Shown here: one piece after another, positions 24,315 through 43,797 of the stretch
Layout: the number at the start of each line of letters is the position of its first letter
How positions within the stretch are numbered: position 1 is the first letter of the stretch
Assembly: GCA_017544265.1 (NCBI GenBank)
Contig: JAFYEM010000023.1
Span: 188-64,187, forward strand
Source of the DNA: Bacteroidales bacterium
GTDB taxonomy: Bacteria > Bacteroidota > Bacteroidia > Bacteroidales > UBA932
Direction of reading: 5' to 3'
DNA length: 64,000 nucleotides
Program-made: the position numbers and the translations under genes
Notes under the pieces: model-generated
The model's database searches: none
Told to the model about the DNA's origin: nothing
What the model saw: the letters and a program-made list of their open reading frames with translations, nothing else

Positions 24315-26390
24315 TTATAAGATAGCGGGGGATTGGGCTTTTTTAAATGTCATTTTGCTTCTTTCAGAAGGAACAACCTGATAGGTTGCGCGGACTTTGT
24401 GCTCAGGTTCAATCTCGACGCAGTTCTTTTTTGCATCGATACTCTTTGTGCCCTTTGCGAACTTCTTAAGGTTCTTGCTTGCAGAGGCTGCAGCGACTGC
24501 TTCATCCGGTGTCGGATAGATATCCGGATCTGCAAGAAGGATAGAGCGATACCCGGCAACTGTTGTGTACAGTTTATCTTCCTCTCCTTCTTCTTCAGCA
24601 AGCTGATATACATTGAACAAAATGCCGTCAAAGTTTATACCATAGTCGTTGCTATATTGTGGATAACCAACGAGTGCAATCAAACCTTCAGCAACATAAG
24701 CTCCGATAAGCGCGTAATTCAAGCTATAGAACGAATCTACGTTTGAAGCATAGAATTCAGGAATAAATCCAAGTCCGGCTAATTGCGGGATGGCAGACTC
24801 TTGATAGTCAGCTTTGTGAGAGTAGATTAATCCATTATATAAATCGAATACCACTGAATCGTCGTACTGATAGTATCCGCCTACGCCTAATCCGGGAAGT
24901 GAGTAGTAATCCTGACCCAAATCAGTGAATTGAGTGGAAAGTTGATACTCAACTTCGCTACCCCAGCCTTCCTTACCAAGAGCGATTGCGTAGACATCAT
25001 ATGTTTTATCTGTCAGCGCTTCAGCACTCAGCGGACCGACAAAATCAGCGGCTGAGTAGTCATCAATTGTGAGAGGATCCGGTTCGCCGACAAGGAAAGT
25101 CTCGTAGGCAATGAATTCAGGCTGGGCTTCGCCTTCAGCAAATGGAACCACAACTACAGTGTAGAAGGAGTTTGGTTCGAGAGCTATGCGGGCCTCGCCA
25201 CTGGCCTTGAGTTCAATAACTACCGGCCCGGCAGGCTCTTCACCTTCTTCTGATGCCCCGCCTTCTTCTGTTTCCTCATCACCTGAAGGAATGATTATAT
25301 CAATACCTGGTTGAGGATTCTTGCCCGGAACAAGAGCAACCTTTGCGGTTTCGACGTCCTTGCCAACAAAGTTGACATCAAACATGGCGAAGAGAGTGCC
25401 ATCAAGTTTGGAGTAAAGTCCAGTATACTCAACAGAAAGAGTGTAATCACCAAGAATGGCACCAGGAAGAGCGATACGGAATTTTCCGGCTTGATCGGCA
25501 TAATACAAACCATCATCATCCCCATAAATCATCTTCCCTTTAGGCATGGTGATTATTTTATCTTTAAGCCATCCGGTGTTTCCGGCCGTTTTTTGATCTT
25601 CAACAGTACTTCCATTTGCAATTGCATATCCGGCCAAGCTGCCTATACTCATCGATCCATATCCCCAGTCAAGAGAGTATGTAGTAATAGGAATCCAAAC
25701 GGCATCAGGATTTTCAGCGTGAACGTAGAAAAAGTTTTCCGCTTCTTTCGCAGGATCATATTTGGCGTCAGGATTATTGGCGTTATATGGAAACTTGTCA
25801 CCATAGGGGCTCTCTAATTTGTAGTAACCCTCATCGCTCATCCAAATATCCAGTTCATACTCAACTGCATCCATTTGATACATCGGGGCTACCATACTTT
25901 CGCGGAATTTCGCTTTTCCCTTGAGTTTAACCCATTCCTTTGGGGCTTCGGGACCAACAAAAACGATGCTCAGTCCATTTCCTCCGTAAGGTGTCGCACC
26001 CGCGGAAATTGCTATGTCAAGCCCGTATTTTTTAGACGGTTCAAACTTAGATGGATCCACAGGAATAACGATGTCGGCAGTTTCTGCTTCAGCATCAAAA
26101 ACAACTTCAATTTCCCCAATGCCTTCAGAATAAATGAGTTTTGTCGTATCAGTGATAGCAACTGTAGCAGTAACTGCCTCACTGGTGTTTCGACGATTAA
26201 GTTTGACAGTAATATCTTCCGACTCATCAGTCAAGGGAAAAGACTTAATCGTATTGGGATCGAAGAAGAATAATGGAGAGCTGGTATCTTCCGGCTCCGC
26301 CGGGACGTAGATGCCCTCCTTTACGGAGCAGGAATAAATCGCAGCACCGACAGTGAGGAAACTTACAATAAATATAATATATTTTTTCAT
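24315..26390 (-). CDS. Surface lipoprotein of left SusCD cassette (unknown function, Ig-like domains)
   Basis: Lipobox IYSC followed by an acidic export-signal-like stretch. Third gene of the left cassette, loosely paralogous to 37028..39211. Confidence 0.72.
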   Translation of the reverse strand: MKKYIIFIVSFLTVGAAIYSCSVKEGIYVPAEPEDTSSPLFFFDPNTIKSFPLTDESEDITVKLNRRNTSEAVTATVAITDTTKLIYSEGIGEIEVVFDAEAETADIVIPVDPSKFEPSKKYGLDIAISAGATPYGGNGLSIVFVGPEAPKEWVKLKGKAKFRESMVAPMYQMDAVEYELDIWMSDEGYYKLESPYGDKFPYNANNPDAKYDPAKEAENFFYVHAENPDAVWIPITTYSLDWGYGSMSIGSLAGYAIANGSTVEDQKTAGNTGWLKDKIITMPKGKMIYGDDDGLYYADQAGKFRIALPGAILGDYTLSVEYTGLYSKLDGTLFAMFDVNFVGKDVETAKVALVPGKNPQPGIDIIIPSGDEETEEGGASEEGEEPAGPVVIELKASGEARIALEPNSFYTVVVVPFAEGEAQPEFIAYETFLVGEPDPLTIDDYSAADFVGPLSAEALTDKTYDVYAIALGKEGWGSEVEYQLSTQFTDLGQDYYSLPGLGVGGYYQYDDSVVFDLYNGLIYSHKADYQESAIPQLAGLGFIPEFYASNVDSFYSLNYALIGAYVAEGLIALVGYPQYSNDYGINFDGILFNVYQLAEEEGEEDKLYTTVAGYRSILLADPDIYPTPDEAVAAASASKNLKKFAKGTKSIDAKKNCVEIEPEHKVRATYQVVPSERSKMTFKKAQSPAIL

Positions 26391-26407: not shown

Positions 26408-28024
26408 TTATGCATCTTCGTCTTCAACTGCTTTAGGAGAAGGAGCGGCAGGGTTGTTGTCAGCGTCGCTGAGCTTCTTGTTTGCGTTGATTTCAGTTTC
26501 AGGAATACGGTAAAGAAGAATGTCTGAACCCGCAGGAATATTAAATACTGCAGTTTTAGGGAATCCTGCACCACGGCGGTCAACATCTTTATTAAGACGC
26601 ATGATATCGAACCATGAAATACCTTCACCCCAGAATTCTATCCTTCTCTGACGGTATACCTCTTCTGCAATCTCATCACCGTCGGTTGAATCGAAAGCAT
26701 ATTCCGTATCACGGTATGTCTTAACAAAACCGGTGAGGGTTTCAAGGGCTGTCGCAGGATTGGTGTGTGCTTCGGCCTCAGCCTTAATCAGATAAAGTTC
26801 CTCAACACGGATAAGAGGGAGATCGTTAGCATTAACGGTTGTGCTGGCTTCATCCCTATAGGGAGCGAACTTGACTTGAGTGTATGGTTCATTACCAAAA
26901 TGGCTATCCATAACTTTGGCAAAATCCGCATTAAGAATATCAGAATGGCCTTCGGCATCCAACCACCATCCGTGTCGTGCATCAGAGATGGAAATCAAGC
27001 CGAACAGCTTCTTTGATATCAGGCGTCCACCTGAATACCAACCGTAACCGTAACTGAGGGATCCCATGTGGGAAGGAAAGTTGCAGATAGCAGACTCGAC
27101 AACATCATCCTTCTCATCAATGACATCTGCCCAAAGATAGGATGTCTCGTTAGCTGAATCCCAAAATAGCGGTCCTGATTTGAGTGTTGCAATCGAATAT
27201 GGGGCAAGCTTCTCTTTTTCAGCAAGAGCAAGAGCCTTGGCGGCATCTTCAGCTGCAGCTGTCCAGTTCTCGGTTGTCAGATTGAATCGGGCACGGAGAG
27301 CGTATGCGACAGCACTGTTGACATACCTTTTATCGATACGTTTATCGCCAGCAGCTTCTGCTTTTTCAAGAAAAGCAATAGCGTTGTCGATATCGGAGAA
27401 AATCTGCTCATAAACTTCTTTAACAGTGCTTCTGCCAATACCATCGTTAGCAGCCTCGAGAGCATTCTCGTCTGTTATAAGAGGAACGCATGGTGCATCC
27501 TGATGATCTGCATAATTAAACTGGAAAAGTTGAGCGAGTACCCAGTAGTCAAAAGCACGAACAGCGTATGCCTGTCCGATTAGTGACTGTACAGATACGA
27601 GAGGAGAATCCTTATCGTAGCTTTCAAGAAGTCCATTTGCTATCTTTAACTGCTTGTACATCCACATCCATATCATGTAAACCTCGTCACTGGAATAGTT
27701 GCGGCTTGAATACGTTACGGAAGCAGCAAACCAGTTATAACCAGAAGTGGAAGAAACCATATCGTAACCATTGCCGTCCAAAAGGAGCATGAGTCCGCCA
27801 TAACCGATATCGTTATGGTTACCGGAAATAGCACTCTGATATTCGTGGAACTGGAAATAGAGAGAATTGACGCCGGCGGTGGCTTTGGCGGGATCACGCT
27901 GGAGGACAGTCTCTTTCTGTTTAGTGGTGATAGTCGCACCGGAAGGTTCTGTCTCCAAAAAGTCGGAGCAACTGCTAAATACTAAAGCGGTCGCAAGGAG
28001 TGAAATGATATATCTTGTTTTCAT
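26408..28024 (-). CDS. SusD/RagB family lipoprotein (left cassette)
   Basis: Lipobox FSSC-SDFLETEP, GQAYAVRAFDYWVLAQLF, RVEELYLIKAEA, QRRIEFWGEGISWFDIMR. Confidence 0.93.
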   Translation of the reverse strand: MKTRYIISLLATALVFSSCSDFLETEPSGATITTKQKETVLQRDPAKATAGVNSLYFQFHEYQSAISGNHNDIGYGGLMLLLDGNGYDMVSSTSGYNWFAASVTYSSRNYSSDEVYMIWMWMYKQLKIANGLLESYDKDSPLVSVQSLIGQAYAVRAFDYWVLAQLFQFNYADHQDAPCVPLITDENALEAANDGIGRSTVKEVYEQIFSDIDNAIAFLEKAEAAGDKRIDKRYVNSAVAYALRARFNLTTENWTAAAEDAAKALALAEKEKLAPYSIATLKSGPLFWDSANETSYLWADVIDEKDDVVESAICNFPSHMGSLSYGYGWYSGGRLISKKLFGLISISDARHGWWLDAEGHSDILNADFAKVMDSHFGNEPYTQVKFAPYRDEASTTVNANDLPLIRVEELYLIKAEAEAHTNPATALETLTGFVKTYRDTEYAFDSTDGDEIAEEVYRQRRIEFWGEGISWFDIMRLNKDVDRRGAGFPKTAVFNIPAGSDILLYRIPETEINANKKLSDADNNPAAPSPKAVEDEDA

Positions 28025-28037: not shown

Positions 28038-31000
28038 TTAGAAAGTTATATTAAGACCTCCTGATACGGTGCGGATAGGCGTGTATCTGGCTGTTGTTGA
28101 AGAAACATAGCTTTGGCGAGGGTCCAGGCCCTTGCGTGCAGATATAAGAGCTACATTGTCAGCTGTCACATAAATGCGGACCTTTGACAAGCCAATCTTA
28201 GAAATCCATTTCTCAGGAAGAGAATATCCGAAAGTAATATTATTCAGTGAGAGGTAATTAGAACTGGTCAAGAACCTTGTTGTAGTACCGTTGGAATACC
28301 TGTCCTCGCCGTTGATACGAGGAATATCGGTATCGGTATTCTCAGGAGTCCATGCTTTGCGGATATCTATGTGCCAGTTTTGACCCATGTAGTAGTAGTA
28401 TCCACTGTGCATCAGGCGCTGATAACCGGAGTCAAACATTTTTCCGCCGAGTTGATAGGACAGTGAAATGGATAAGTCAAATCCATACGCAGATACAGAA
28501 GTCCCAAAACCGCCGTAAACCTTAGGCATCAGGTTATCGGTGGCAATTTTGTGCTCTGAAGCTACCTGATAATCGGTGGTGGTGACGCGACTACCATCTT
28601 TGTCAGTTGTATAGAATAAAGGTGCGCCGGTCGCTTTGTCAACACCAGCCCATTCAACAAGGTAGAGTCTGTACATTGAGTAGCCTTCCTCAAGTATGGA
28701 GGTGCCGTCAATCATGCGATGACGTCCGTCTTCTACGGGAAGGTCGGGTGAAAGGCTGATAATCTTGTTATTGATGTTTGTGAAGTTGAAGAAAGCAGAC
28801 CAAACAACGTTGTTGGTGCGGATTATATCTCCTTTAAGTTCTAATTCGAGACCGTAGTTCTTCATTGAACCAATATTCATCGGAAGAGACGAATAACCAC
28901 TCACAAGAGGGGTCGGTTTGTAGTAGAGCATATTGTTAGACTGACGTCCGAAATACTCGATGGAACCTGAGAGACGGTCTTCAAATAAGGAGAAGTCTAA
29001 ACCAACATTGTAAGAGATTGATTTTTCCCATGTGAGGTCAGGATTACCCTTGAATGAAAGAACGCCGTCGGAGAAGAATCCGTTGGAACCGGAGAGTGAA
29101 TACTGGTCGAGGTAAGCATAGTTATTTCCGATCGCGTCATTGCCCTGCTGGCCGAAAGAGGCCTTAAGTTTGAGAAGGTTGACCCAGTTAACACTGTCCA
29201 TGAAACCTTCGGATGAGATCACCCACGCGGCAGATCCGTTGAGGAAGGCGCCCCAGCGGTTCTTGGGAGCGAATCTTGATGACGCATCCTCGCGGAAGCC
29301 GAAGCTCACCAGATACTTGTCGGCGAAACTATAGTTGGCCCTTGCAATGATTCCCAAAGTCGCGTATTTAGAAGCGCTGCCATAACCGTTCTTCTGGTCA
29401 ATTGCATTGCTGATATAGTATGACTGGGGGTCATAGAGATTTTGGCCCTGCGCACTCAGATTGGTGACTTTTAGCTGATAAGCATCAACACCGGCTGTAA
29501 AATCGAACTTGTGGATATTCTTGATAGCGAATTCGTAGTTTGCTATAAGCTGAAAGTCTAGGCCGCGGGTACGGGCAGAACTCTGGTATGCGGTTCCACC
29601 ATATTCTGCACTTTGGCCTATGTAAGCATTGCCGAGGTAGTTGTGACGGGTAAATTCAATGTCCATAGATGCATTGGCGTTGAGTGTGAAGCCCTTGAAT
29701 GGCTTTAACTCCGCGAAAGCAGAAAGTGCGAAAATATCCTTGCAGTATTCTTCCTTATTCCAGATGAGATCACCGACAGGATTGGCGATTTGCATGAATG
29801 TACGTTTTGAGGGAGATATTTTTCCGTCGCCGTAATCATAGACTTTTCGACCATTGTTCATCATAATATTTCCCTCTGCATCTCGGACATATACAGGATA
29901 TACCGGAGCGACAAAGTTTGCTATATAAAAAGCATTTACAGAAGACGTTGTGTTAGTCTGCTCGTCAGGATACTGGCTAAATGAGGAGCTATACGCAATG
30001 TTCCCGCCAATTTTGAGCCAATTCTTAACCTTATAGTCGGCCTTCAAACGGGCAGTCTCTCTGCGGAATCCTGAGTTAGAGATAACACCCTTGTCATCAA
30101 GGAAGCCGGCAGAAGCATAGAAACTGTAACGGTCGTTACCTGCCGTGGCGGAGACATTATATTCTTGACGAATTTTGTCCGCGAAGGTCTCCTTTGTCCA
30201 GTCATCGGGAGTGTAGTAGAAATTCCCATCACTGTAACCAAGGGTAGCTTTAGGGTTAATCTTACCATTTGCGCCAACGAGGTACTCGCCCTTTGGAACG
30301 GTAAAAATGGTGTAACCATAACCATAATCCCCACCGTTAAGGGCATATTTACTTGAAATACCTCCGTAGCTAACACCGTTGACCATTGCGGCAGCGGTGG
30401 CAGGGGAAGTACCGGCAGAAATAAGTTGATTATAAATCGCCAGGTAAGCAAGTTCTGTGTACTCGAAAGGAGAACTGAGTACGTCATAGTTCGTGACAGC
30501 TCGGCTATTGACACCAACACGTGCATCAATGTTGATTACCGCATGGCCGGCTTTACCTTTCTTGGTAGTAATGGTTACAACACCGTTCGCGCCACGGGCA
30601 CCATAGAGAGAGGTGGTAGCAGCATCTTTGGCAACCGTAATGGATTCGATGTCTTGAGCGTTGATGGAGGAAATGTCACCGTCGAAAGGGCGTCCATCCA
30701 CAACGTATAGCGGGTTGGCATCGGCATTGATGGAACCCACACCACGTACTCGGATAGTTGAACCCACGCCCGGCTGTCCGTTGTTACTGAGCACCTGAAC
30801 ACCTGCCATAGTTCCGGCCAGAGCATTGGTAACATTGGAGACCTGACGTTTTTCGATGGTCTCGGAATCCATCGAGCTCACTGAACCCGTGAACGTGCCT
30901 TTGGTGGAAGTACCATAGGCGGTAATAACGACCTCTTTCAAGAGTTTGGAGTCGGGTTCGAGGCTGATTAGGATGTCCGCCCCGGCATCCACTTCCTGAG

Positions 31001-31241
31001 ATTTCATTCCAATGAATGACACCAGAAGTTTTGCTCCGGAAGGAACATTGTTGAGGGTAAACGAACCGTCAACGTCTGAAACCGTTCCCTTGAGGTCTGT
31101 ACCCTGAACTGTAATGACTGCTCCGGCAACGGGCTCTCCGTCATCTGATGAACGAATCACGCCATGCACACGATTCTGTGCAAATGCGCTTATCGCCACT
31201 GCCAGAAAGCAGGTCAGGGTTAGCAAGATTTTTCTTGTCAT
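28038..31241 (-). CDS. SusC/RagA family TonB-dependent transporter (left cassette)
   Basis: LKEVVITAYG TonB box, PLYVVDG, KDAATTSLYGARGANGV, NPDLTWEK, C-terminal SGGLNITF. Confidence 0.96.
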   Translation of the reverse strand: MTRKILLTLTCFLAVAISAFAQNRVHGVIRSSDDGEPVAGAVITVQGTDLKGTVSDVDGSFTLNNVPSGAKLLVSFIGMKSQEVDAGADILISLEPDSKLLKEVVITAYGTSTKGTFTGSVSSMDSETIEKRQVSNVTNALAGTMAGVQVLSNNGQPGVGSTIRVRGVGSINADANPLYVVDGRPFDGDISSINAQDIESITVAKDAATTSLYGARGANGVVTITTKKGKAGHAVINIDARVGVNSRAVTNYDVLSSPFEYTELAYLAIYNQLISAGTSPATAAAMVNGVSYGGISSKYALNGGDYGYGYTIFTVPKGEYLVGANGKINPKATLGYSDGNFYYTPDDWTKETFADKIRQEYNVSATAGNDRYSFYASAGFLDDKGVISNSGFRRETARLKADYKVKNWLKIGGNIAYSSSFSQYPDEQTNTTSSVNAFYIANFVAPVYPVYVRDAEGNIMMNNGRKVYDYGDGKISPSKRTFMQIANPVGDLIWNKEEYCKDIFALSAFAELKPFKGFTLNANASMDIEFTRHNYLGNAYIGQSAEYGGTAYQSSARTRGLDFQLIANYEFAIKNIHKFDFTAGVDAYQLKVTNLSAQGQNLYDPQSYYISNAIDQKNGYGSASKYATLGIIARANYSFADKYLVSFGFREDASSRFAPKNRWGAFLNGSAAWVISSEGFMDSVNWVNLLKLKASFGQQGNDAIGNNYAYLDQYSLSGSNGFFSDGVLSFKGNPDLTWEKSISYNVGLDFSLFEDRLSGSIEYFGRQSNNMLYYKPTPLVSGYSSLPMNIGSMKNYGLELELKGDIIRTNNVVWSAFFNFTNINNKIISLSPDLPVEDGRHRMIDGTSILEEGYSMYRLYLVEWAGVDKATGAPLFYTTDKDGSRVTTTDYQVASEHKIATDNLMPKVYGGFGTSVSAYGFDLSISLSYQLGGKMFDSGYQRLMHSGYYYYMGQNWHIDIRKAWTPENTDTDIPRINGEDRYSNGTTTRFLTSSNYLSLNNITFGYSLPEKWISKIGLSKVRIYVTADNVALISARKGLDPRQSYVSSTTARYTPIRTVSGGLNITF

Positions 31242-31259
31242 AACAAAACGATTAGTTAA
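31230..31259. repeat. 30-bp perfect inverted repeat with 32166-32195 (shared 5'UTR + start codon of the two susC genes)
   Basis: ttttcttgtcataacaaaacgattagttaa is the reverse complement of ttaactaatcgttttgttatgacaagaaaa. A further 14-bp IR lies at 31266-31279 / 32151-32164. Confidence 0.95.
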
Positions 31260-31286
31260 GTTTAAAATAAATACACTACCAACCGG

Positions 31287-31312
31287 ATTAAGAAAACGTC
31301 CGTTTTCTTGTT
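31287..31312 (-). promoter_or_regulatory. Left serine-invertase crossover site (hix/gix/Mpi-like)
   Basis: attaagaaaacg-TC-cgttttcttgtt: 9-bp palindromic arms around an asymmetric dinucleotide (31299-31300). Contains AAACGTCCGT. Confidence 0.82.
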
Positions 31313-31916
31313 ACACATTGATAATGTCATTGATGAACCTCCTTACTGTTTGTCTGGACACCTTTAATTTTCGCGCTGCTTCGGAAATCGTCACGCCCGC
31401 CTCTATCATTTCTTTCAATTGCTGCCTTTTTGAGTAGAGCTTGTAGCACCGAGGAGATGATTTATGACCGGCGGGGCGTCCTAGTATAACGCCTTCCGCA
31501 CGCTTGCGTTGAAGTGCTTCTTTTGTTCTTTGGCTGATCAGATTTCGCTCTATTTCTGCAGACAACCCGAATGCAAAGGCAAGAACCTTGCTTTGGATAT
31601 CGTCGCCAAGACGATAGCCATCCTTTATAGTCCAAACCTTACAACCGCGTGACATACAGAAACTTAATACCTCCATAATCATAAAAAGGCTTCGTCCCAA
31701 TCGCGAAAGTTCTGTGCAAATCATAATGTCTCCTCTATGCAATTGCTGCAGAAGTCTTCCAAGACGGCGTTGCTTGTAGTTTTTTAGTCCACTGGTTGTT
31801 TCTTCAATCCAGAAATCGATTCTCAAGCCATTTGAAATACAGAATTGATTTATCTCAAATCTTTGATTATCAAGGGTCTGTTTATCGCTGCTGACCCGCA
31901 TGTAGCCATAAATCAT
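31311..31916 (-). CDS. mpi: Serine recombinase, Mpi-like DNA invertase
   Basis: MIYGYMRVSSDKQ (catalytic Ser), ELSRLGRS, YRLGDDIQSKVLAFAFGLSAEIERNLISQRTKEAL, LGRP and a C-terminal HTH. Closely matches my recollection of Bacteroides fragilis Mpi. Confidence 0.9.
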   Translation of the reverse strand: MIYGYMRVSSDKQTLDNQRFEINQFCISNGLRIDFWIEETTSGLKNYKQRRLGRLLQQLHRGDIMICTELSRLGRSLFMIMEVLSFCMSRGCKVWTIKDGYRLGDDIQSKVLAFAFGLSAEIERNLISQRTKEALQRKRAEGVILGRPAGHKSSPRCYKLYSKRQQLKEMIEAGVTISEAARKLKVSRQTVRRFINDIINV

Positions 31917-32070
31917 AGCAAGTTTGGTTTAAAAGTTTTAAGTTAAGATATGTTATTAAATAAGGGAAATAACTGTCGATTTGAAAGTGAAATTTAGGGA
32001 ATTTTATCTGTTTTTTTAGAAAAATACGGCTAATTCTCGCATTCAGACGCAATTAGGGCTGAAATTACAA

Positions 32071-32102
32071 TTTGTAATTCTAATTTTTTTTTTCCAACTT
32101 TG
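32071..32102 (+). promoter_or_regulatory. Bacteroidetes sigma-A-type promoter inside the invertible segment, currently facing the right susC
   Basis: TTTG at 32071-32074, a 20-nt spacer, then CAACTTTG at 32095-32102 (one mismatch to TAnnTTTG). Ends 13 nt before the right crossover site. Confidence 0.7.
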
Positions 32103-32115
32103 CGCGTAAATCCGG

Positions 32116-32141
32116 TTTGAAAAAACGGACGTTTGATCCGA
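32116..32141 (+). promoter_or_regulatory. Right serine-invertase crossover site (hix/gix/Mpi-like)
   Basis: tttgaaaaaacg-GA-cgtttgatccga, central GA at 32128-32129. Its reverse complement contains AAACGTCCGT. Confidence 0.82.
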
Positions 32142-32183
32142 CCGGGTTGTGTAGTGTATTTATTATTAACTAATCGTTTTGTT

Positions 32184-35100
32184 ATGACAAGAAAACTACT
32201 GCTTGTTCTGACCTGTACGATAATGGGGATGGGCATTGCCCTCGCACAGTCCCGCGTGAGCGGTACCGTTGTGTCCTCAGAAGACGGTGAACCGGTTGCC
32301 GGTGCCATCGTTACCGTGCAGGGAACAGACCTGAAAGGAACTGTCACGGACGCTGAAGGACGCTTCTCCATCGACAAGGTCGCGTCCGGTGCCACCCTCC
32401 AGATTTCTTTCATCGGTATGAAAACGAAAGAAGTTGCAGCGGGAGCCAATCTGGATATTGTGCTCGAGCCCGATAGCAAACTTCTGAAGGAAGTCGTCAT
32501 CACGGCCTACGGTACCTCCACAAAGGGAACGTTCACAGGCTCCGTGAGTTCGATGGATGCCGAGACCATTGAAAAACGTCAGGTCTCCAATGTCACCAAC
32601 GCCCTCTCCGGTACTATGGCCGGTGTCCAGGTACTCAATTCCAACGGACAGCCGGGCGTAGGTTCCACAGTCCGCATCCGCGGTGTGGGTTCCATCAACG
32701 CCGGTTCCGCCCCTCTGTACATCGTGGACGGTATGCCTTTCGACGGTGACATTTCCTCAATCAATTCGCAGGACATCGAGTCCATTACGGTTGCAAAGGA
32801 TGCTGCCACCACCTCTCTCTACGGTGCGCGCGGTGCCAACGGTATCGTCATCATCCAGACCAAGAAAGGTAAGGCCGGAAGGGCTGTCGTGAATATCGAC
32901 GCCCGCGTCGGTGTGAACAGCCGTGCAATCAAGAACTACGACGTCCTCTCCTCGCCGGACGAGTACACCGAGCTCGCTTACAAGGCAATCTACAACCAGC
33001 TGCTTGCGACCTACGACCCTGCGACCGCGCAGGCTTATGCCAATGGTCCCATCTACGGCGGTATTGCTTCCAGCAGCGATATCGGCATCACAGGTATTTC
33101 CGCAGGTTACGGTTATCCTATTTACACCGTTCCCCAGGGTCAGTATCTGATTGGTACCGACGGTCGCCTGAATCCCCACGCGACCCTCGGCTACAGCGAC
33201 GGAACGTACTATTACACTCCCGACGACTGGGCCAAGTACACCTTCAAGGATCAGATCCGCCAGGAATACAACGCCAGCGTCTCCGCGGGCGGCGACCGCT
33301 ACAGCATCTACGCTTCCGCGGGCTACCTGGACGACAAGGGTGTCATCCGCAATTCCGGGTTCAACCGTACCAGCGCCCGTTTGAAAGCTGACTATAAGGT
33401 AAAGGACTGGCTCAAGATCGGCGGTAACGTCGCTTATTCATTCTCATACAGCCAGTATCCGGACGAGCAGACCAATACCACCTCTTCCGGCAACGCCTTC
33501 TTTGTCGCGAACTTCATCGCTCCCGTCTATCCGATTTTCGTGCGCGACACCAAAGGCAATATCGTTACCTCCAACGGCCGTCAGGTCTATGACTATGGTG
33601 ACGGCGTTTCCGCCGGAAACTCCCGTGCCTTCATGTCCATCGCGAACCCTGCCGGTGACCTTATATATAATAAGGAAGAATACTGCATGGATATCTTCTC
33701 GCTGGGCGCCTTCGTCGAGTTGAAACCCTTCAAGGGCTTCACCCTCACCGGGAACTTCGGCATGGACCTGGATTTCACCCGCTACAACAACCTCGGCAAC
33801 GCATATTTCGGACAGAGTGCGAGCTACGGCGGTACTGCCTACCAGGCATCCTCCCGTACCCGCGGATTCGACTATCAGGTCATAGCCAACTACGAGGTCG
33901 CCATCAAGGCTCTCCACAAACTGGACTTCACCCTCGGTATCGACAACTACGAGTACAAGTATGCGACCATCAGCGCACAGGGGCAGAACCTGTACAATCC
34001 CGAGTCCTTCTATGTCTCGAACTCCATCGACCAGAAGAACGGCTACGGCAGCGCCACCACATACAAGACCTTCGGCGCCTTCTTCAGGGCCAACTACAGC
34101 TATGCTGACAAATATCTCGTGAGTCTTGGTTTCCGCGAGGACGGTTCTTCCCGCTTCGCTCCCAAGAAGCGCTGGGGTTCCTTCCTTTCCGGTTCCGCGG
34201 CATGGGTAATCTCCTCCGAGGGCTTCATGGACGGCGTGGACTGGGTCAACCTCCTGAAACTCAAGGCTTCCTACGGACAGCAGGGTAATGACGACATCGG
34301 CAACTACTACGCCTACCTGGACCAGTATTCAGTTTCCGGTGCCAACGGCCTCTTCTCCGACAGCGTTCTTGCCTACAAGGGTAATCCCGACCTGACCTGG
34401 GAAAAATCCATTTCCTACAACATCGGTCTCGACTTCTCTCTCTTCGACGACCGTCTGAGCGGTTCCATCGAATACTTCGGCCGTCAGTCCAACGACATGC
34501 TTTACTACAAGCCCACTCCTCTGGTGAGCGGTTACTCATCCATCCCCATGAACGTCGGTTCCATGAAGAACTACGGCGTAGAGCTCGAACTCAAGGGAGA
34601 CATGGTCCGCACCCAGGACATCGTCTGGTCTGCGTATCTGAACCTCACCAACGTCAACAACAAGATCGTCAAGCTCCACGAGGACCTCGGCGGCAAGTGG
34701 ATCAACGGCGCCTTCATCTATGAAGAGGGCCAGTCCCGCTACCGTATGTACATAGTCGAATGGGCTGGCGTCGACAAGGAGACAGGTGCACCTCTCTTCT
34801 ACACGGTCAAGGATGGCGAGAGGGTGACCACCACCAACTACCAGAATGCATCCGAGAACGGCCTTATAGCGACCGACAACCTGATGCCCAAGGTCTATGG
34901 CGGTTTCGGTACCTCTCTCCAGGCTTTCGGCTTCGACCTCTCCGTATCGCTTTCCTACCAGCTTGGCGGAAAGATCTACGACAGCGGTTATGCCCGCCTG
35001 ATGCACAGCGGTTACAAATCCTACATGGGTAACAACTGGCACAAGGATATCCGCAAGGCATGGACTCCCGAGAACACCGACACGGATGTTCCCCGTCTGA

Positions 35101-35375
35101 ATGCTGCCGACCAGTATTCAAACTACACTTCCACAAGGTTCCTGACCAGCTCCAACTATCTCTCGCTGGACAACATCACCTTCGGTTACTCCCTTCCCCA
35201 GAAGTGGCTGTCAAAGGCGCACATCTCCAAGATCCGTATCTATGCGACCGCGGACAATGTCGCCCTTCTCTCCGCCCGCAAGGGCCTCGACCCCCGTCAG
35301 AGCTTCACCTCTGCGACTACGGCTCTCTATACGCCGATCCGTACCATCTCCGGTGGTCTTAACATAACCTTCTAA
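32184..35375 (+). CDS. SusC/RagA family TonB-dependent transporter (right cassette)
   Basis: Real start MTRKLL at 32184. Same motifs as the left susC (LKEVVITAYG, NPDLTWEK, SGGLNITF), with long identical peptide stretches. Confidence 0.96.
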   Translation: MTRKLLLVLTCTIMGMGIALAQSRVSGTVVSSEDGEPVAGAIVTVQGTDLKGTVTDAEGRFSIDKVASGATLQISFIGMKTKEVAAGANLDIVLEPDSKLLKEVVITAYGTSTKGTFTGSVSSMDAETIEKRQVSNVTNALSGTMAGVQVLNSNGQPGVGSTVRIRGVGSINAGSAPLYIVDGMPFDGDISSINSQDIESITVAKDAATTSLYGARGANGIVIIQTKKGKAGRAVVNIDARVGVNSRAIKNYDVLSSPDEYTELAYKAIYNQLLATYDPATAQAYANGPIYGGIASSSDIGITGISAGYGYPIYTVPQGQYLIGTDGRLNPHATLGYSDGTYYYTPDDWAKYTFKDQIRQEYNASVSAGGDRYSIYASAGYLDDKGVIRNSGFNRTSARLKADYKVKDWLKIGGNVAYSFSYSQYPDEQTNTTSSGNAFFVANFIAPVYPIFVRDTKGNIVTSNGRQVYDYGDGVSAGNSRAFMSIANPAGDLIYNKEEYCMDIFSLGAFVELKPFKGFTLTGNFGMDLDFTRYNNLGNAYFGQSASYGGTAYQASSRTRGFDYQVIANYEVAIKALHKLDFTLGIDNYEYKYATISAQGQNLYNPESFYVSNSIDQKNGYGSATTYKTFGAFFRANYSYADKYLVSLGFREDGSSRFAPKKRWGSFLSGSAAWVISSEGFMDGVDWVNLLKLKASYGQQGNDDIGNYYAYLDQYSVSGANGLFSDSVLAYKGNPDLTWEKSISYNIGLDFSLFDDRLSGSIEYFGRQSNDMLYYKPTPLVSGYSSIPMNVGSMKNYGVELELKGDMVRTQDIVWSAYLNLTNVNNKIVKLHEDLGGKWINGAFIYEEGQSRYRMYIVEWAGVDKETGAPLFYTVKDGERVTTTNYQNASENGLIATDNLMPKVYGGFGTSLQAFGFDLSVSLSYQLGGKIYDSGYARLMHSGYKSYMGNNWHKDIRKAWTPENTDTDVPRLNAADQYSNYTSTRFLTSSNYLSLDNITFGYSLPQKWLSKAHISKIRIYATADNVALLSARKGLDPRQSFTSATTALYTPIRTISGGLNITF

Positions 35376-35388
35376 TATGCAGCGCGAT

Positions 35389-37008
35389 ATGAAAACAAGA
35401 TTTATCACAGTTTCCATTCTTGCCGGAGCTCTCTGCCTCTGGAGCTGCTCTGACATGCTTGAGACCGAGCCCAATGGCTCGACCATCACTGCTTCGCAGA
35501 AAGAGAAGACACTTAAGAATGACCCTTCCAAGTCATCTGCAGGCGTCAACTCCCTCTACGCACAGTTCAATGAGGTCTTCGGTGTCGTTTCGGGCGACCG
35601 CCACAACGATATCGGTTTCCCTGCGAACATAATTTTCATGGACGCCAACGGCGAGGACCTCGTTTCCGCCGGTAACGGATACAACTGGTTCAACTCCTCG
35701 GTGGATTTCTCTTCGAGAGACTATCAGGACGAAGCCGCAATCCTTGTCTGGTCCAACCTTTACAAGATAATCGCCAACTGCAACAACATCCTTGCCGTTG
35801 CAGACCGCGAAACCTCGAATCCCGATGCCCTTTCCGCTAACGGACAGGCTCTCGCCCTCCGTGCATTCGCGTACTGGGAACTGGCCCAGTTGTATGCCTT
35901 CCACATCAAGGGACATGAGACTGACGCCTGCGTTCCGCTCGTGCTTGAGTCCAATAAGGACGAACTTGCCCTTATGGGTATCGAAAGGAGCACCGTCGCC
36001 AAAGTCTATGAGCAGATTACTGAAGACATCGACGAAGCCATCGTGGCCCTGGATAAGGCTGCTGCCGAAAAGGTAAAGCGTGGTGACAAACGTTATATCA
36101 ACAACACAGTCGCCTACGGTCTCCGTGCTCGTATCAACCTTACGTTGGAGAACTGGTCTGCTGCCGCGTCCGATGCCGCCAAGGCAATCGAACTTGCCGA
36201 AGCTGAAGGTATCAGGCCTTATTCCATCAAGGAACTTGCCGATCCGTCAAGCTTCATCCTCATGGATTCAAGTGAGCCTTCTTACGTCTGGGCTGACATA
36301 ATCGCCGAAACCGACGACGTGGTCGAGACCGGTATCTGCAACTTCTCCTCCCACATGGGTTCCATGAACTATGGCTACGCCTCCTACGCCGAGGGTCGTG
36401 CAATCAGCAAGAAACTGTTTGCCACTATCGCCGACAACGACGTCCGCAAGGGCTGGTGGCTGGATGAGAGCGGTCTTTCCGCCAATATCTCCGCCGAGGC
36501 CAACGCCTACATGGCAGACAACTATTCCAACCTTGCCCGCCTCCAGGTCAAGTACGGCCCCTACAAGGGTGAACTCGGTACTTCCACCAATGCCTGCGAC
36601 GTCCCGCTCATGCGCGTGGAGGAACTCTATCTCATCAAGGCGGAAGCTCTTGGCCGCGACAACACCTCCGCAGGTGTTAGTGCTCTCAATGATTTCGTTT
36701 CCACCTACCGTCAGCCGGGTTACTCCTTCGCTGCTTCCAGCGCCGACGCTTTTGTCGACGAGGTTTTCCGCCAGAGGAGAATCGAACTCTGGGGAGAGGG
36801 CCTGAACTGGTTTGATATTATGCGTCTGAACAAGGGTATCGACCGCCGCGGCTGCGGATTCGAAGCTACCGCTGTATTCAATATTCCCGCCGGGGCCCAG
36901 ATTCTGCTCTGGAGAATTCCCAAGGCTGAAATTGAATCCAACCCGAAGATCTCCGAATCCGACAACAACCCTTCGGCTGATAAACCGGAACCTGTCAAGG
37001 ATATTTAA
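35389..37008 (+). CDS. SusD/RagB family lipoprotein (right cassette)
   Basis: Start MKTRFI at 35389 (or 35377). Lipobox LWSC-SDMLETEP, GQALALRAFAYWELAQLY, RVEELYLIKAEA, QRRIELWGEGLNWFDIMR. Confidence 0.93.
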   Translation: MKTRFITVSILAGALCLWSCSDMLETEPNGSTITASQKEKTLKNDPSKSSAGVNSLYAQFNEVFGVVSGDRHNDIGFPANIIFMDANGEDLVSAGNGYNWFNSSVDFSSRDYQDEAAILVWSNLYKIIANCNNILAVADRETSNPDALSANGQALALRAFAYWELAQLYAFHIKGHETDACVPLVLESNKDELALMGIERSTVAKVYEQITEDIDEAIVALDKAAAEKVKRGDKRYINNTVAYGLRARINLTLENWSAAASDAAKAIELAEAEGIRPYSIKELADPSSFILMDSSEPSYVWADIIAETDDVVETGICNFSSHMGSMNYGYASYAEGRAISKKLFATIADNDVRKGWWLDESGLSANISAEANAYMADNYSNLARLQVKYGPYKGELGTSTNACDVPLMRVEELYLIKAEALGRDNTSAGVSALNDFVSTYRQPGYSFAASSADAFVDEVFRQRRIELWGEGLNWFDIMRLNKGIDRRGCGFEATAVFNIPAGAQILLWRIPKAEIESNPKISESDNNPSADKPEPVKDI

Positions 37009-37027: not shown

Positions 37028-39211
37028 ATGAAAACATTCAAATATTTAGTTTATACCCTTGCCGCGGCCTTGACCGTCGCGTCCTGCGCCAAGGAAAAGG
37101 AGAACGAGTACCAGGCTGTTCCGGCCCCGAAAGGGGACGAGGTTATTTTCGCTCCCATCTCCGAACTTGAGAACTTCGACAAGGTTACGGGTGTCGTCAG
37201 CCTTACCGGCAATGAAGACGGCTACTTCAATGTCTTTCTCAAGAGAGAGAAGGCGGAGAAGATGTCCCTTGTGCAGGTCGAGTCCTCCGCAGATGAAATC
37301 TTTACCGTGCCCTCTTCCGCCATCTTCGAGAAAGGCGAGAAACAGACTGCAATAAAGATTGAATTCGACCCCGAGGAAATCGAGTCTCAGAAAGCCTACG
37401 ACTTCACCCTCACCATCAGCGGAGCACCTGTCTCCAAATATGCTGTCTCCACTATCAACTTCCAGGCCGGCGACGTCCTTCCCCTGGAATGGCACAAGTG
37501 GAAGAAGGGTCACATGACGGAAGGTTTCTGGGGTGAAGAAGAGGATGAGGATATGTACTATGCGGTTGTGGACGCCGACAAGGATTCCAAAGAACTTTTT
37601 GCAAGTTTTGCCGGTGAAAGCGATCCTATCACAGCTTTCCAGAAGGAATGGAAACCTGGCGACAACAGTTATCTCGACCTCTACTGCTATATTGAGAACT
37701 GCTTCGACACTATGGGCGATGCCGATCCCACGAATTACTATTTTACCTGGCATCTGAAAGACAACTCCATTTCTATTGCGCCGCAGTACATGGGTTGGAC
37801 TAATTCTTCTGGAGTTCCTGTCTATTTCCTCGATGCGGCTCATTATCCTATGACTGCGGCAGGATGGGATGAAGCTCGGGCTATAGCCTGGGCAAAGAGC
37901 AACGGCTTAGCTCTTCCTTATTATGATGGAAACGGCGGATTCTATCTCGCAGACTGGTACATGACAAATATCGCCACCGGCAACGGTTATCAATTTGGTG
38001 GCAATCCCGATGTCTTCATTGCCGAAGGCTTCGTCCGCACCGTGGATTACAACCCTTCCAAAGAGGTCTATTCTTACAAAGACTTCATGTCCGGTTCCGT
38101 TGAATCCATCGGCCTTGGCCGCAGCTGGGAAGATCAACCGCTTCAGATTAATGAATATGCTGCTTCGAGCGATGACAAGGCCCTCTACTATCTTCCCGAC
38201 TACTTCGGTGAGGACCTGGGCCTTGCTTTCACCGGACCCCTGCAGGGCAACCTCAAGGACGGTCTTCCTATCCAGGGCGTAGCCAACGAGCAGCCCACCG
38301 GCATGGAGTATGGCGGAAAGCCCCTCTTTGCTGTGGTTACCGGCGGCAAGATCACCGTTGAAGACGGTAATTACGTATTCACCATCAAAGTCCAGTACGA
38401 GACCATGGCCCCGAGCGAGGACGATCCCGAAAAGCTTGTTGTCTTTGGCACCCTTCCCGAGGTCGAGGAAATCTTCACTTCCAGCTATGTCGCCGAGTAC
38501 TATTCGGACTACCAGATTGAGCCTGTAAAGAGCAAGAGGGATTTGTTCGGTGTTTACAAAGCAACAGCTACTTCTTTCTTAAACGGTCCTCTCGATCTTG
38601 AACTTACCATCACTGAAGGTTACTGGAACGAAGACCGTACCGAGCAGTATGTAAATATCTCCGGCCTTACCGGGGGCAATCTTCCGATTGACGATACCGT
38701 TTACGCTCTTTATGAGGACGGATTTATTGTACTTGAGGCCCAGACCTTCTTCGGCCCGTATATGGCTGGTGCTTACTACTGCCTGGTGGATCCTCTGGCA
38801 TCTGCTGATTTGGCGACAAGTACCAACCTTATCGGCGGTATCTACACCGACCCTGACACCAAGGCCCAGAAGCTGGTCTTTGTGGGCGACGGCTCCTTTA
38901 CCGATGGTTTCTATTTCTACCCGTATTCTCCATCTTCCGGTCCTGCAGGGACTTTCGACTTCGTGTTTGATGTCTTTGCGGACTATACCGGTCACGAAGT
39001 TATCGAGGAGGAGGTTGATGAGCCCGCTGCGGCTCCCGCCAAGCTCTCCCTTCCCAAGAACAGCAAGCCTGCCGTTTCTTTCGACGGCAATATGCTCCGC
39101 AATCTTGGAAAGAAGAGCCACAAGGCCGTCCCTTCCCGTTCCTTCGCGCTTACTTTCCCTGAAAGAGGTTCAAGGAATCTGGAACCTAAATCTTTTGTAA
39201 GTATCCGTTAA
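37028..39211 (+). CDS. Surface lipoprotein of right cassette (unknown function)
   Basis: Lipobox VASC-AKEKENE, acidic, with an N-terminal Ig-like region similar in layout to 24315..26390. Confidence 0.72.
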   Translation: MKTFKYLVYTLAAALTVASCAKEKENEYQAVPAPKGDEVIFAPISELENFDKVTGVVSLTGNEDGYFNVFLKREKAEKMSLVQVESSADEIFTVPSSAIFEKGEKQTAIKIEFDPEEIESQKAYDFTLTISGAPVSKYAVSTINFQAGDVLPLEWHKWKKGHMTEGFWGEEEDEDMYYAVVDADKDSKELFASFAGESDPITAFQKEWKPGDNSYLDLYCYIENCFDTMGDADPTNYYFTWHLKDNSISIAPQYMGWTNSSGVPVYFLDAAHYPMTAAGWDEARAIAWAKSNGLALPYYDGNGGFYLADWYMTNIATGNGYQFGGNPDVFIAEGFVRTVDYNPSKEVYSYKDFMSGSVESIGLGRSWEDQPLQINEYAASSDDKALYYLPDYFGEDLGLAFTGPLQGNLKDGLPIQGVANEQPTGMEYGGKPLFAVVTGGKITVEDGNYVFTIKVQYETMAPSEDDPEKLVVFGTLPEVEEIFTSSYVAEYYSDYQIEPVKSKRDLFGVYKATATSFLNGPLDLELTITEGYWNEDRTEQYVNISGLTGGNLPIDDTVYALYEDGFIVLEAQTFFGPYMAGAYYCLVDPLASADLATSTNLIGGIYTDPDTKAQKLVFVGDGSFTDGFYFYPYSPSSGPAGTFDFVFDVFADYTGHEVIEEEVDEPAAAPAKLSLPKNSKPAVSFDGNMLRNLGKKSHKAVPSRSFALTFPERGSRNLEPKSFVSIR

Positions 39212-39230: not shown

Positions 39231-41429
39231 ATGAAAAAGTATATTTATTATCTTATGGCCTTTGCCGCGCTGGCAGCAGTTTCCTGCCAGCCGGAGAAGA
39301 AGCAGGCTGAGGAGGAAGAGATTGAAGGTTCTGTGGAATTTTCGGTCAACCCCACCTGCGTGGTTCCCGCCGATGGTGCCGAGGCTGTCGAACTGAGCGT
39401 AATCTCCAATGTTCCCTTCGAACCGATTATTGAAGAGGGCGCCGATTGGCTTCGCCTCGTGGAAGATGGAAAGGCTGAGACTGCAGCATCTTCTTTCATC
39501 ATTTCCGTTGATCCCCAGCCCGATGCTGACAGTCCTTCCCGTTCTGCGGTAATTACCTTCAAAAATACTGAGTCCCTTGAAGTCATATCGACCAAGATGT
39601 CTGTGCTGACTGTTATCCAGACGGATGCCAAGGGCCTTTCGATATCCATTACCCAGCCCGGTGCCGTCAGCTTCGAGGGTGCATTCCTTGATGATGATGA
39701 TGCACTTGAAGTAAAGTACAAGTCCAATATTCCGATTGCTCCTTATTTCCCTCCTCTCAAAGAGGGTGCTTCAGCAAAGGAATTTGCTGAGTACGAGGCT
39801 GCTTACGGCTGGATTGAGTGGGATGAAGAGGATAGTTCCTACGATGCGGCTAAAGGTGAGGGCGTTTTCGTTTTCGAAATCGACTCCAATGATACTTCCA
39901 AGGAACGTTCTGCGACTCTCGGAATCATCCGTCTGGACAAGGAATTCGCCAAGGAAGAGGATGCCATCGTCGAAGGCAAGAGCATAGTCATCTCCCAGGA
40001 AGCCAAAATCGGCCAGATGATTTTGTCTATTGAAGATGGAGCTGTCCTCAGTGCCCTGGATATTCTTCCTCCTGCAGGCGGTGATGCATCGTTCGACTAT
40101 TATGCAACCTGCCCTGTGGAGCCTTACTTCGCGGAAGGCGGCGAACTTGAGTATGAAATCATTGCCGGTGCTCCCCTCAACACTATTAAATTCAAGGTCC
40201 CTGCAAACTCCTCTGAGGAAGCTGTCGCTTACCTTATATATTTCAAGGATGCAAGCGAGCCTGAGAAGGAAGAAGGCGACGAGCCCAAGTCCGCGAGGGC
40301 CAAAAAAGAGGTCGTCCTTCTCAGGGATATTTACACCGGAGAGTTGATTTCCGCGAATATCCTTGTCCAGGCAGGTCTCATCGGTTTTGAACTGGCGGAG
40401 AAAGATCCCTTCGATCTTGAGTTCGGAAATTCAATAGCCCTGACGCCCGTATTCAATCCCGAGGGAGCCGGCGACGGCCGTGTGATTGAATGGACTTCAT
40501 CCGATCCCGAAGTTCTCTCCGTGGAGGACGGTATGGTGACCGCAGTCGGTGTCGGCACCGCCACAATCACCGCCGAGGTCGAAGACTTCTCTGCAAGCGT
40601 TGAAATCACCGTTCCTTGGGCTGTTGCGCTTGATCAGGATGAACTTGAACTAATCGTTGGTAAGAGCGCTACCCTTGTGGCAAGCTTCCTTCCTGAGGAA
40701 CTTGCAGATGTCAAGACTATTGAGTGGTCTTCATCAGATGAGTCAGTAGCTACTGTTGTTGACGGTGTCGTTACTGCTGTCGCAGAAGGTGATGCTGTCA
40801 TCTATGCAACGTCTGGTGATAAGTCTGCCAAATGCGCAGTCAGTGTCTTCCAGTACATCGCATTGTACGCGAATGACCTGAATGAGAGTCTTGAGGGTTG
40901 GTTAATCTTTGATGAAGATGATGACGGAAATACATGGGGATGGTATTATCTGACCGATCAGATTGCGGATCCTGTACTTAAGAGCTTCTCTTGGTCCAGC
41001 GGTGCACTGAATCCTGACAACTGGGCGTTATCTCCAGCAGTTGAACTTATGGAAGATTCCAATTATCTCACTCTTGATATCATAGACAGCGGATACAAGG
41101 ATAACATGGCAATATATGTTGCAGATGCAGAGGCAGTCGAAGCAAATGAAACTGATCCGTTGTCAGAGTTTAAGGATGTCCTGATTGATCAGGCTTTTGA
41201 TGGATGGGATACTTATACCTTCCCGATTCCTGAGAAGTTCAACGGCAAGTCTGTAATGTTTGCTTTCCGCCACTATAATTGCACTGATCTCTACTGGATT
41301 GCTATTAATGATATTCTTGTTTCCTATGGTAATCCTTACCCTGATGTGGCACCAGCTCCTGCAAAGCGCAATATTTCCTTTGCGTCAAGCCGTGAGGCCA
41401 GGGTTATTGAATCAGTTATAGCGAAATAG
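39231..41429 (+). CDS. Surface lipoprotein with BACON-like repeats, two Big_2 Ig domains and a C-terminal cleaved-adhesin (gingipain/haemagglutinin-like) domain
   Basis: Lipobox AVSC-QPEKKQAEEEE. Two W(T/S)SSD..V..V.DG.VTAV repeats. C-terminal GWLIFDEDDDGNTW...LNPDNWALSP...FAFRHYNCTDLYWIAINDI. Confidence 0.75.
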   Translation: MKKYIYYLMAFAALAAVSCQPEKKQAEEEEIEGSVEFSVNPTCVVPADGAEAVELSVISNVPFEPIIEEGADWLRLVEDGKAETAASSFIISVDPQPDADSPSRSAVITFKNTESLEVISTKMSVLTVIQTDAKGLSISITQPGAVSFEGAFLDDDDALEVKYKSNIPIAPYFPPLKEGASAKEFAEYEAAYGWIEWDEEDSSYDAAKGEGVFVFEIDSNDTSKERSATLGIIRLDKEFAKEEDAIVEGKSIVISQEAKIGQMILSIEDGAVLSALDILPPAGGDASFDYYATCPVEPYFAEGGELEYEIIAGAPLNTIKFKVPANSSEEAVAYLIYFKDASEPEKEEGDEPKSARAKKEVVLLRDIYTGELISANILVQAGLIGFELAEKDPFDLEFGNSIALTPVFNPEGAGDGRVIEWTSSDPEVLSVEDGMVTAVGVGTATITAEVEDFSASVEITVPWAVALDQDELELIVGKSATLVASFLPEELADVKTIEWSSSDESVATVVDGVVTAVAEGDAVIYATSGDKSAKCAVSVFQYIALYANDLNESLEGWLIFDEDDDGNTWGWYYLTDQIADPVLKSFSWSSGALNPDNWALSPAVELMEDSNYLTLDIIDSGYKDNMAIYVADAEAVEANETDPLSEFKDVLIDQAFDGWDTYTFPIPEKFNGKSVMFAFRHYNCTDLYWIAINDILVSYGNPYPDVAPAPAKRNISFASSREARVIESVIAK

Positions 41430-41449: not shown

Positions 41450-41482
41450 GACCGGTCCGTTTTTTGCGGACCGGTCTTTTTT
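41450..41482 (+). terminator. Rho-independent terminator closing the right cassette
   Basis: 10-bp stem gaccggtccg / cggaccggtc followed by T6. Confidence 0.88.
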
Positions 41483-41485
41483 GTA

Positions 41486-41493
41486 TAACTTTG
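41486..41493 (+). promoter_or_regulatory. -7 promoter box (TAACTTTG), 4 nt before the ATG at 41498
   Basis: Exact TAnnTTTG match immediately after the terminator. Confidence 0.6.
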
Positions 41494-43700: not shown

Positions 43701-43789
43701 TGCAGTGAAGGCCGTAAGTCTGCTGACGCATGCAGTGAGGGCAGAATAAAGAAACTGAAAAAAAATTTGGTGAATTGAATAAAGAATTG

Positions 43790-43797
43790 TAGATTTG
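43790..43797 (+). promoter_or_regulatory. -7 promoter box (TAGATTTG) for tRNA-Leu
   Basis: Exact TAnnTTTG, 15 nt upstream of the tRNA. Confidence 0.65.

Follow-up and report, generated by a model that had tools for sequence, protein, structure and literature searches.

In the sap locus of Campylobacter fetus, a single promoter resides on an invertible segment between opposed sapA homologues, and the inversion proceeds by homologous recombination between conserved 5' regions of the genes. In the H segment of Salmonella (hixL-hin-promoter-hixR-fljBA), the serine invertase Hin is encoded inside a segment of ~1 kb, which carries an outward promoter just inside one of its 26-bp sites, and the alternative flagellin is controlled indirectly via the FljA repressor. 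Hin has been reviewed (PMC11868660). In Bacteroides fragilis, the master invertase Mpi acts in trans on 13 distant regions, and the promoters of the capsular polysaccharide (PS) loci lie inside invertible segments and carry a -7 box of the TAnnTTTG type (PMC4747536). SusC/SusD phase variation by site-specific inversion has likewise been described in this species, where tyrosine recombinases cause shufflon-type (Tsr0667) or gene-altering rearrangements (PMC4747536; PMC9881135). Here we analyse a stretch of 64,000 nt from a Bacteroidales bacterium of the ruminant gut (GenBank assembly GCA_017544265.1, contig JAFYEM010000023.1; subsequently designated the window), in which an invertase gene lies between two paralogous susC/susD cassettes pointing in opposite outward directions. 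We consider it very likely that this Mpi-family invertase flips a segment of ~830 bp and thereby moves one outward promoter between the two cassettes. The features that make up the switch are as follows.

28038-31241, minus strand: left susC (1067 aa), not behind the promoter in the assembled orientation
31287-31312, no strand: left recombination site, 26 bp, centre TC at 31299-31300
31311-31916, minus strand: gene of the Mpi-family serine invertase (201 aa), within the invertible segment
32071-32074, plus strand: -33 element TTTG (ATTTG from 32070), with a 20-nt spacer to the -7 box
32095-32103, plus strand: -7 element, i.e. CAACTTTG (32095-32102) followed by C, giving CAACTTTGC of the VAACTTTGC subclass
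32106-32110, plus strand: predicted transcription start region, from the geometry of Bacteroides promoters
32116-32141, no strand: right recombination site, 26 bp, centre GA at 32128-32129
32142-32183, plus strand: right 5' leader outside the site, near-identical to the left leader (31242-31286, minus strand; inverted repeats I7 and I9)
32184-35375, plus strand: right susC (1063 aa; Plug, TonB_dep_Rec_b-barrel and CarboxypepD_reg domains), behind the promoter in the assembled orientation

Like the Salmonella H segment, the locus has a small invertase gene inside the segment and a single outward promoter at its far end, whose transcript would cross the site. Unlike in Salmonella, where the other side of the segment switches nothing on, a paralogous cassette with a matching leader lies on the other side in the window, and the promoter is of the Bacteroidetes -33/-7 type. 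One promoter alternately serving two opposed paralogous surface-protein cassettes recalls the sap locus of C. fetus, which differs in that the window has a dedicated site-specific invertase and short sites. With the Mpi system of B. fragilis the locus shares the recombinase family (NF009949 above cut-off) and the position of the promoter inside the segment; its site core, AAACGTCCGT, may also resemble the Mpi target consensus. The enzyme of the window, however, sits within its single target, and it acts on SusC/SusD cassettes rather than capsule loci and would select one of two operons, not the on or off state of a single one. Shufflon-type inversions of B. fragilis likewise subject SusC/SusD outer-membrane proteins of Bacteroidales to phase variation, but they move or recombine coding segments into an expression site, whereas here the recombinase is of the serine type, would move a promoter and crosses over in the 5' leader, outside the coding sequence; the locus does not belong to the shufflon class. 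The switch is an invertible promoter of Hin-like layout in a Bacteroidales setting, and this kind of mechanism is well known. The conceptual advance is accordingly modest, invertible promoters and the Hin layout being textbook matter.

The 12-bp core AAACGTCCGTTT is present in exactly two copies in the window, which are inverted relative to each other (31294-31305, plus strand; 32123-32134, minus strand). There are three copies in the genome; the pair in the window is the sole inverted pair flanking a segment, and the third copy (C25:28052) stands alone. Both 26-bp sites consist of related 12-bp half-sites flanking an asymmetric 2-bp core (GA/TC), and the inner half of the left site overlaps the stop codon of the invertase gene (31311-31313). 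Both sites read AAACGTCCGT, which agrees at 9 of 10 positions with the target consensus of Mpi, reportedly ARACGTWCGT, and has C at the W position. Elsewhere in the genome, searches for Mpi-like sites (ARACGTWCGT, AACGTNCGTT) returned scattered single matches and no further pair. The segment extends over ~830 bp from crossover centre 31299/31300 to crossover centre 32128/32129 and comprises the invertase gene and the 200-nt region upstream of it. The crossover falls in the 5' leader, 52-57 nt from either ATG (32184-32186 in the case of the right susC). Sites of 26 bp, an asymmetric 2-bp core and a recombinase gene inside the segment are the arrangement of Hin/Gin-type systems; the Fis-dependent recombinational enhancer of such systems is not known here, no search aimed at one having been made.

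The N-terminus of the encoded protein, MIYGYMRVSSDKQ, contains the catalytic-serine motif (YMRVSSDKQ), in which S9 or S10 would be the active-site residue. Residues 2-143 match PF00239 (Resolvase; E 5e-33), helix-turn-helix (HTH) models match the C-terminus at 161-198, and NCBIfam model NF009949 ('master DNA invertase Mpi family') yields 311.1 bits at a cut-off of 272, spanning residues 1-197 and profile positions 1-195 of 203. Judged from its sequence, the enzyme is an Mpi-family serine invertase. The behaviour of a 'master' invertase is not reflected in the genome (1.87 Mb, 90% complete), which has a single copy of the invertase gene and one inverted site pair. The protein, although Mpi-like by family, would work as a local, dedicated enzyme.

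Inversion was assessed by aligning Logan contigs of ruminant-gut metagenomes (runs X1, X4, X7-X10, X12 and X13) to the region. In X4 and X8, contigs end at 31306 or start at 31277 on the left side, and end at 32134 or start at 32105 on the right side, and these breaks (31277-31306; 32105-32134) mark where the assembly graph branches, at the 13-nt core. The loose end following 32134 reads TCTTAATCCGGTTGGTA, which is the reverse complement of 31277-31293, and the loose end preceding 32122 reads TATCAATGTGTAACAAG, the reverse complement of 31307-31323. Hence, both predicted recombinant junctions are present in the loose ends of these two runs. The X8 version of the loose end after 32134 has A where X4 has T, at the base corresponding to 31282, and an A>T single-nucleotide polymorphism at 31282 is also found in X9, X10, X12 and X13. 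In X12, a contig of 1150 nt covers 31618-31920 and 32046-32121, after which it switches to the opposite strand and follows it from 31306 to 31000. Its joint of 32121 with the reverse complement of 31306 (13 letters fit either side) connects the promoter end of the segment to the leader of the left susC. It had been predicted that the flipped promoter would read into a near-identical left leader, and this contig displays the very junction. Contigs from X1, X7, X9 and X10 pass both sites in the orientation of the window and show no branch, and those from X13 are broken at both sites. Both orientations are thus present in natural populations, that of the window being the commoner state among the samples examined, and the DNA between the inverted repeats behaves as an inverton.

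In the strains represented by X9 and X12, 125 nt within 31920-32046, directly 5' of the invertase ATG, are swapped for 125 unrelated letters, and both the promoter block (32046-32121) and the invertase gene are retained. The invertase's own control region could therefore be exchangeable. The best minus-strand candidates for an invertase promoter reach 16.8 bits in the matrix scan described below and are non-canonical, lacking TTTG (TAAATTTC at 31996).

The original prediction located TTTG-N20-CAACTTTG just inside the right site, and this box is indeed found at 32071-32102 (reading TTTGTAATTCTAATTTTTTTTTTCCAACTTTG), ~26 nt before the crossover centre GA. Its -33 TTTG and its 20-nt spacer conform to the primary-sigma promoters of Bacteroidetes, for which 19-21 nt are typical; within the -7 box CAACTTTG, the A at position 2 and the TTTG match and position 1 is C. 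There is no match to the strict form TAnnTTTG at the box. As a bare pattern it is unremarkable, as the relaxed form TTTG-N19-21-NAnnTTTG has 3 matches in the window versus 1.3 expected. A scan for E. coli-type sigma-70 promoters gave 6 matches versus 2.7 expected and was disregarded, none of them being relevant to Bacteroidetes.

We therefore scored the box against the promoters of its own genome. Upstream of genes, TAnnTTTG has 237 sense matches, far above every other dinucleotide at those two positions, and TTTG-N19-21-TAnnTTTG occurs 111 times in the genome, 99 times in intergenic DNA. The profile of 190 promoter-like sites is characterized by a -33 T-run at -24 to -21 from the first base of the -7 box, by alternating A and T tracts in the spacer, and by a C following the box in 57% of the sites. 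In the derived matrix the first box position was measured (85% T, 6% C), and values of 0.90-0.92 were assumed for the other five selected positions; it was applied to ~1.58 million genome positions (15 contigs, both strands). The box scores 23.7 bits, the median of the training sites being 23.2, and a fraction of 6.3e-5 of the scored positions reaches its score or exceeds it. It is the best-scoring site on either strand of 31200-32200, where the next-best plus-strand sites lack TTTG. Its N20 spacing is the modal spacing of the genome, the -33 TTTG stands at the modal position and a C follows the box. Computation thus places a top-scoring outward promoter inside the segment, and the proposal of a single outward promoter holds in that the box appears to be the only strong promoter of Bacteroidetes type there. 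In Bacteroides, the centre of the -7 box TAnnTTTG lies ~7 nt upstream of the start (Bayley et al., as cited in PMC4747536), and replacing its TTTG by AAAC is reported to eliminate promoter activity (PMC4747536). Given the geometry of the -7 box, the most likely start of transcription is near 32106-32110, which places it ~20 nt ahead of the crossover centre and 75-78 nt ahead of the ATG.

Searches with the invertase in genome and metagenome contigs (529 and 556 relatives, respectively) retrieved Mpi-family genes of 64-69% identity as nearest relatives. Inverted repeats of at least 12 nt within 700 nt of the gene were absent from the 80 genome-contig loci checked. These genes (L024-L183, from genome and metagenome contigs) are extremely widespread. 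Many of their contigs stop 45-160 nt past the invertase stop codon, and some of the bins are labelled Firmicutes, Kiritimatiellae, Akkermansia or Bifidobacteriaceae, a pattern hinting that the surroundings are repeated, mobile or invertible, so that assemblies break and binning is misled.

Paralogues from the genus with 41-49% identity (loci L013, L014, L019 and L022) have the arrangement susC(-)/invertase(-)/susC(+) and possess site pairs of their own. Five switch ends from four genomes of the genus were aligned (given are -33 element, spacer, -7 element and distance to the crossover centre).

Window, right end: ATTTG, N20, CAACTTTGC, about 26 nt
L013, left end: ATTTG, N20, CAACTTTGC, 24 nt
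L013, right end: ATTTG, N20, GAACTTTGC, 23 nt
L019, left end: ATTTG, N20, AAACTTTGC, 23 nt
L022, left end: ATTTG, N20, GAACTT-GC (one T short), about 31 nt

The right end of the window, both ends of L013 and the left end of L019 all carry ATTTG-N20-[C/G/A]AACTTTGC at 23-26 nt before the crossover centre, and none of the five ends has T as the first base of the -7 box. The spacers of the five ends are unrelated, and conservation is confined to the two boxes and the distance between them, as a promoter would demand. Of the two sites in the window, as of the two in L019, one has the box; in L013 two of three do. In L013 and L019 it is located on the 3' side of the invertase gene and is co-directional with it, and in the window it is located on the 5' side and is divergent. 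As the side relative to the invertase differs in this way, the promoter appears to be an independent module, apart from the control region of the invertase itself.

Within 121 genomes of the genus, ATTTG-N20-VAACTTTGC occurs 28 times versus 6 times for the reversed control. About ten of these matches are followed by switch-like palindromes and then by susC-type leaders, and five represent one conserved coding sequence and were counted as false positives. Several others precede ordinary genes with a short leader, among them the gene for ribosomal protein S16 (rpsP; MAVKIRLQRHGKK...) and a metY-like gene. Because the pattern precedes these genes, a -7 box without the initial T seems to serve normal, even highly expressed, genes in the genus. 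The constant spacing of the element from the crossover centre (23-26 nt in four of the ends) and the consistent lack of T at the first -7 position, which is T in 85% of ordinary promoters, would also suit an accessory element of recombination, such as the site of an architectural protein or an enhancer, in place of a promoter. We regard this as very improbable, since the element has exact promoter geometry with modal spacing and a C after the box and stands ahead of rpsP and the metY-like gene with no site nearby. Moreover, every locus examined has one or more sites that lack it; an accessory element should accompany each site or lie between them.

At locus L013 (G007:C86:67861-71445), there are three aaatgaccgttt-type sites, and of two outward boxes CAACTTTGC faces the left susC and GAACTTTGC the right susC; this arrangement suggests nested or alternative inversions and more than two states. 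Separately, a contig of 1622 nt in X1 and X4, which lies outside this genome, matches window positions 32081-32103 and 32182-32199. It reads TAATTTTTTTTTTCCAACTTTGC, followed by a different leader and ATGAAAAAAG; at a distance of 23 nt there is a gene on the opposite strand that begins with ATGACAAGAAAACTAC. We considered this near-identical sequence as a second promoter of the genome and rejected the idea, the contig being foreign to it; a related promoter from a different organism in these samples is the probable explanation.

The left side had been described as having no equivalent box between the site core and the start of susC, and the matrix scan agrees. Neither 31242-31298 (minus strand) nor 32142-32183 (plus strand) contains a promoter-like site above 10.6 bits. 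This value belongs to TCGTTTTG, which ends 3 nt before the ATG on both sides and whose -33 TTG is 24 nt away and thus off-spacing. The two leaders share a 30-bp perfect inverted repeat, which includes the ATG, and the GTAGTGTATTTA block. Conservation of this kind would fit a regulatory element common to both sides, and hence a different scheme, in which each susC would be transcribed from a promoter of its own within the shared leader, inversion would affect just the orientation of the invertase or another property, and the box would have a different role or none. Such an arrangement is very improbable in our view, given that the best site in either leader is the off-spaced TCGTTTTG and that the box recurs in independent switches at some of the sites of each locus, as expected of a movable promoter. 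The GTAGTGTATTTA block (TAGTGTA core; 31266-31279 and 32151-32164, in the 5' untranslated regions of both susC genes) recurs in the susC leaders of L012, L013 and L019 and at the intergenic positions C58:48496 and C65:6958.

Strains distant from the assembled one (X9, X10, X12, X13) carry up to 9 substitutions in the 76 nt from 32046 to 32121. These are located at 32058-32062, in the spacer (32084, 32087, 32093), at 32097, and at 32104 and 32107, and they spare the -33 TTTG as well as the A2 and the TTTG of the -7 box. The sole variant within the -7 box is A>T at 32097, an 'n' position. This pattern agrees with what the promoter model would predict.

Transcript data were likewise drawn from Logan contigs, and these RNA runs provide almost no coverage; none covers 32060-32250, and X26 and X27 resemble low-depth DNA. 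Four RNA pieces of 110-219 nt with 1-4 mismatches map to the right susC (32634-32852, 34136-34245, 34653-34802 and 34973-35123; two bovine metatranscriptomes), and the left susC has 0 specific pieces at very low depth. Under equal expression, 4 versus 0 pieces would arise in ~1 of 16 cases, the orientation of the segment in the RNA samples not being known. Thin as this evidence is, the RNA pieces lie in the predicted direction.

Several observations weigh against a movable promoter that alone decides between the cassettes. An orthologous switch of >70% identity, which would permit a column-by-column comparison, was found neither in the genome nor in the metagenome contig collections. The strain footprint alone is not significant (estimated p ~0.3 for 9 substitutions in 76 nt missing 9 constrained positions). 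The RNA evidence consists of four small contig pieces from mixed communities, with DNA carry-over being possible. The first -7 position is T in 57 of 67 bipartite upstream matches and C in the box, and CAnnTTTG by itself is unenriched upstream of genes (33 sense versus 32 antisense matches). Together with the 3 versus 1.3 matches of the relaxed pattern in the window, the latter would accord with a chance occurrence of TTTG-N20-CAACTTTG in an AT-rich intergenic stretch. We give this explanation as little credence as that of an accessory element: the score equals that of the median true promoter and is reached by a fraction of 6.3e-5 of the positions on the 15 contigs, independent switches share the element although their spacers are unrelated, and in the genus it outnumbers its control 28 to 6.

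The arrangement of the invertase gene raises a further objection. It is co-directional with the left susC, and 69 nt separate its stop codon from the susC ATG. A consensus scan found no intrinsic terminator between the two genes. RNA folding detected a hairpin of -20.2 kcal/mol followed by AUUUAUUUU, which is not significant (z -1.7) and is not re-formed when the 3' end of the invertase gene joins the right flank at the flipped junction; we do not claim it as an insulator for these reasons. Because the invertase gene is co-directional and close, with no terminator that holds in both orientations, low read-through may enter the unserved cassette, and the left cassette may not be off. A description as 'high versus low' is as likely as one of 'ON versus OFF'. 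In the corresponding alternative, the promoter would drive one cassette strongly and read-through from the invertase gene would supply the other at a low, non-zero level, so that both SusC/SusD sets would be present in unequal amounts and invertase expression would be coupled to the unselected cassette. The co-directional gene 69 nt upstream and the lack of a terminator speak for such a toggle; against it, the candidate promoters of the invertase lack the canonical TTTG (TAAATTTC, 16.8 bits), which would keep read-through small, and no RNA piece maps to the left susC, at very low depth. We rate it a serious contender at somewhat less than even chance.

The interpretation of the box as a movable promoter reading out through the site is supported by three independent lines, i.e. 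its score in its own genome, its conservation at diverged switches and the natural recombinant junctions. On this basis, the switch may be pictured as follows. The invertase encoded in the segment would invert ~830 bp between the crossover centres. A strong Bacteroidetes-type promoter at the right end of the segment would fire outward, and its transcript would begin near 32106-32110, cross the site and a leader of ~55 nt and enter a cassette for SusC, SusD and a lipoprotein. In the assembled orientation the right cassette would be served, and after inversion the same promoter would feed the left cassette, a paralogue with a near-identical leader. The unserved cassette would always be the one that the invertase gene faces, making low read-through possible there rather than none. 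We infer the start site, the strength of the promoter, its role as sole driver of the cassettes and the silence of the left cassette.

The remaining genes of the two cassettes are listed below.

26408-28024, minus strand: left susD (538 aa)
24315-26390, minus strand: third gene of the left cassette (691 aa), no family match
35377-37008, plus strand: right susD (543 aa; SusD-like_3 and SusD_RagB)
37028-39211, plus strand: third gene of the right cassette (727 aa), no family match
39231-41429, plus strand: fourth gene of the right cassette (732 aa; BACON, Big_2 and choice-of-anchor J domains)

The left and right proteins are 75% identical in the case of SusC and 54% in the case of SusD, and comparison of the third genes of both sides revealed no detectable homology. 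Two adjacent and related palindromic units (CTGGAAGGTCTGC...GCAGACCTTCCAG) are located at 24203-24294, 3' of the last gene of the left cassette, and are possibly a terminator or a REP-like element. The strict promoter form TTTG-N19-21-TAnnTTTG has just two matches in the window, 41463-41493 and 43766-43797, the former directly after the last gene of the right cassette and ahead of an open reading frame at 41498-42346.

Bacteroidales take up nutrients mainly through SusC/SusD complexes, which are also often used as receptors by phages. The choice, in each cell, of one of two diverged SusC/SusD/lipoprotein sets would give rise to standing heterogeneity of surface and uptake in rumen populations. 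With one enzyme, one site pair and one promoter, the switch is unusually simple to read; orientation could be scored directly from metagenomes and related to diet, phage load or host, and the module of sites, invertase and promoter is compact enough for use in Bacteroides engineering as a genetic toggle with two outputs. More tentatively, the locus may represent a genus-wide family of self-contained Mpi-type switches in ruminant-gut Bacteroidales with small genomes, in which invertase, sites and a dedicated promoter subclass, ATTTG-N20-VAACTTTGC, would travel as a module between divergent susC/susD cassettes. Some of these loci would have more than two states, and an invertase facing the unselected cassette could couple the rate of switching to the state of the cassettes.

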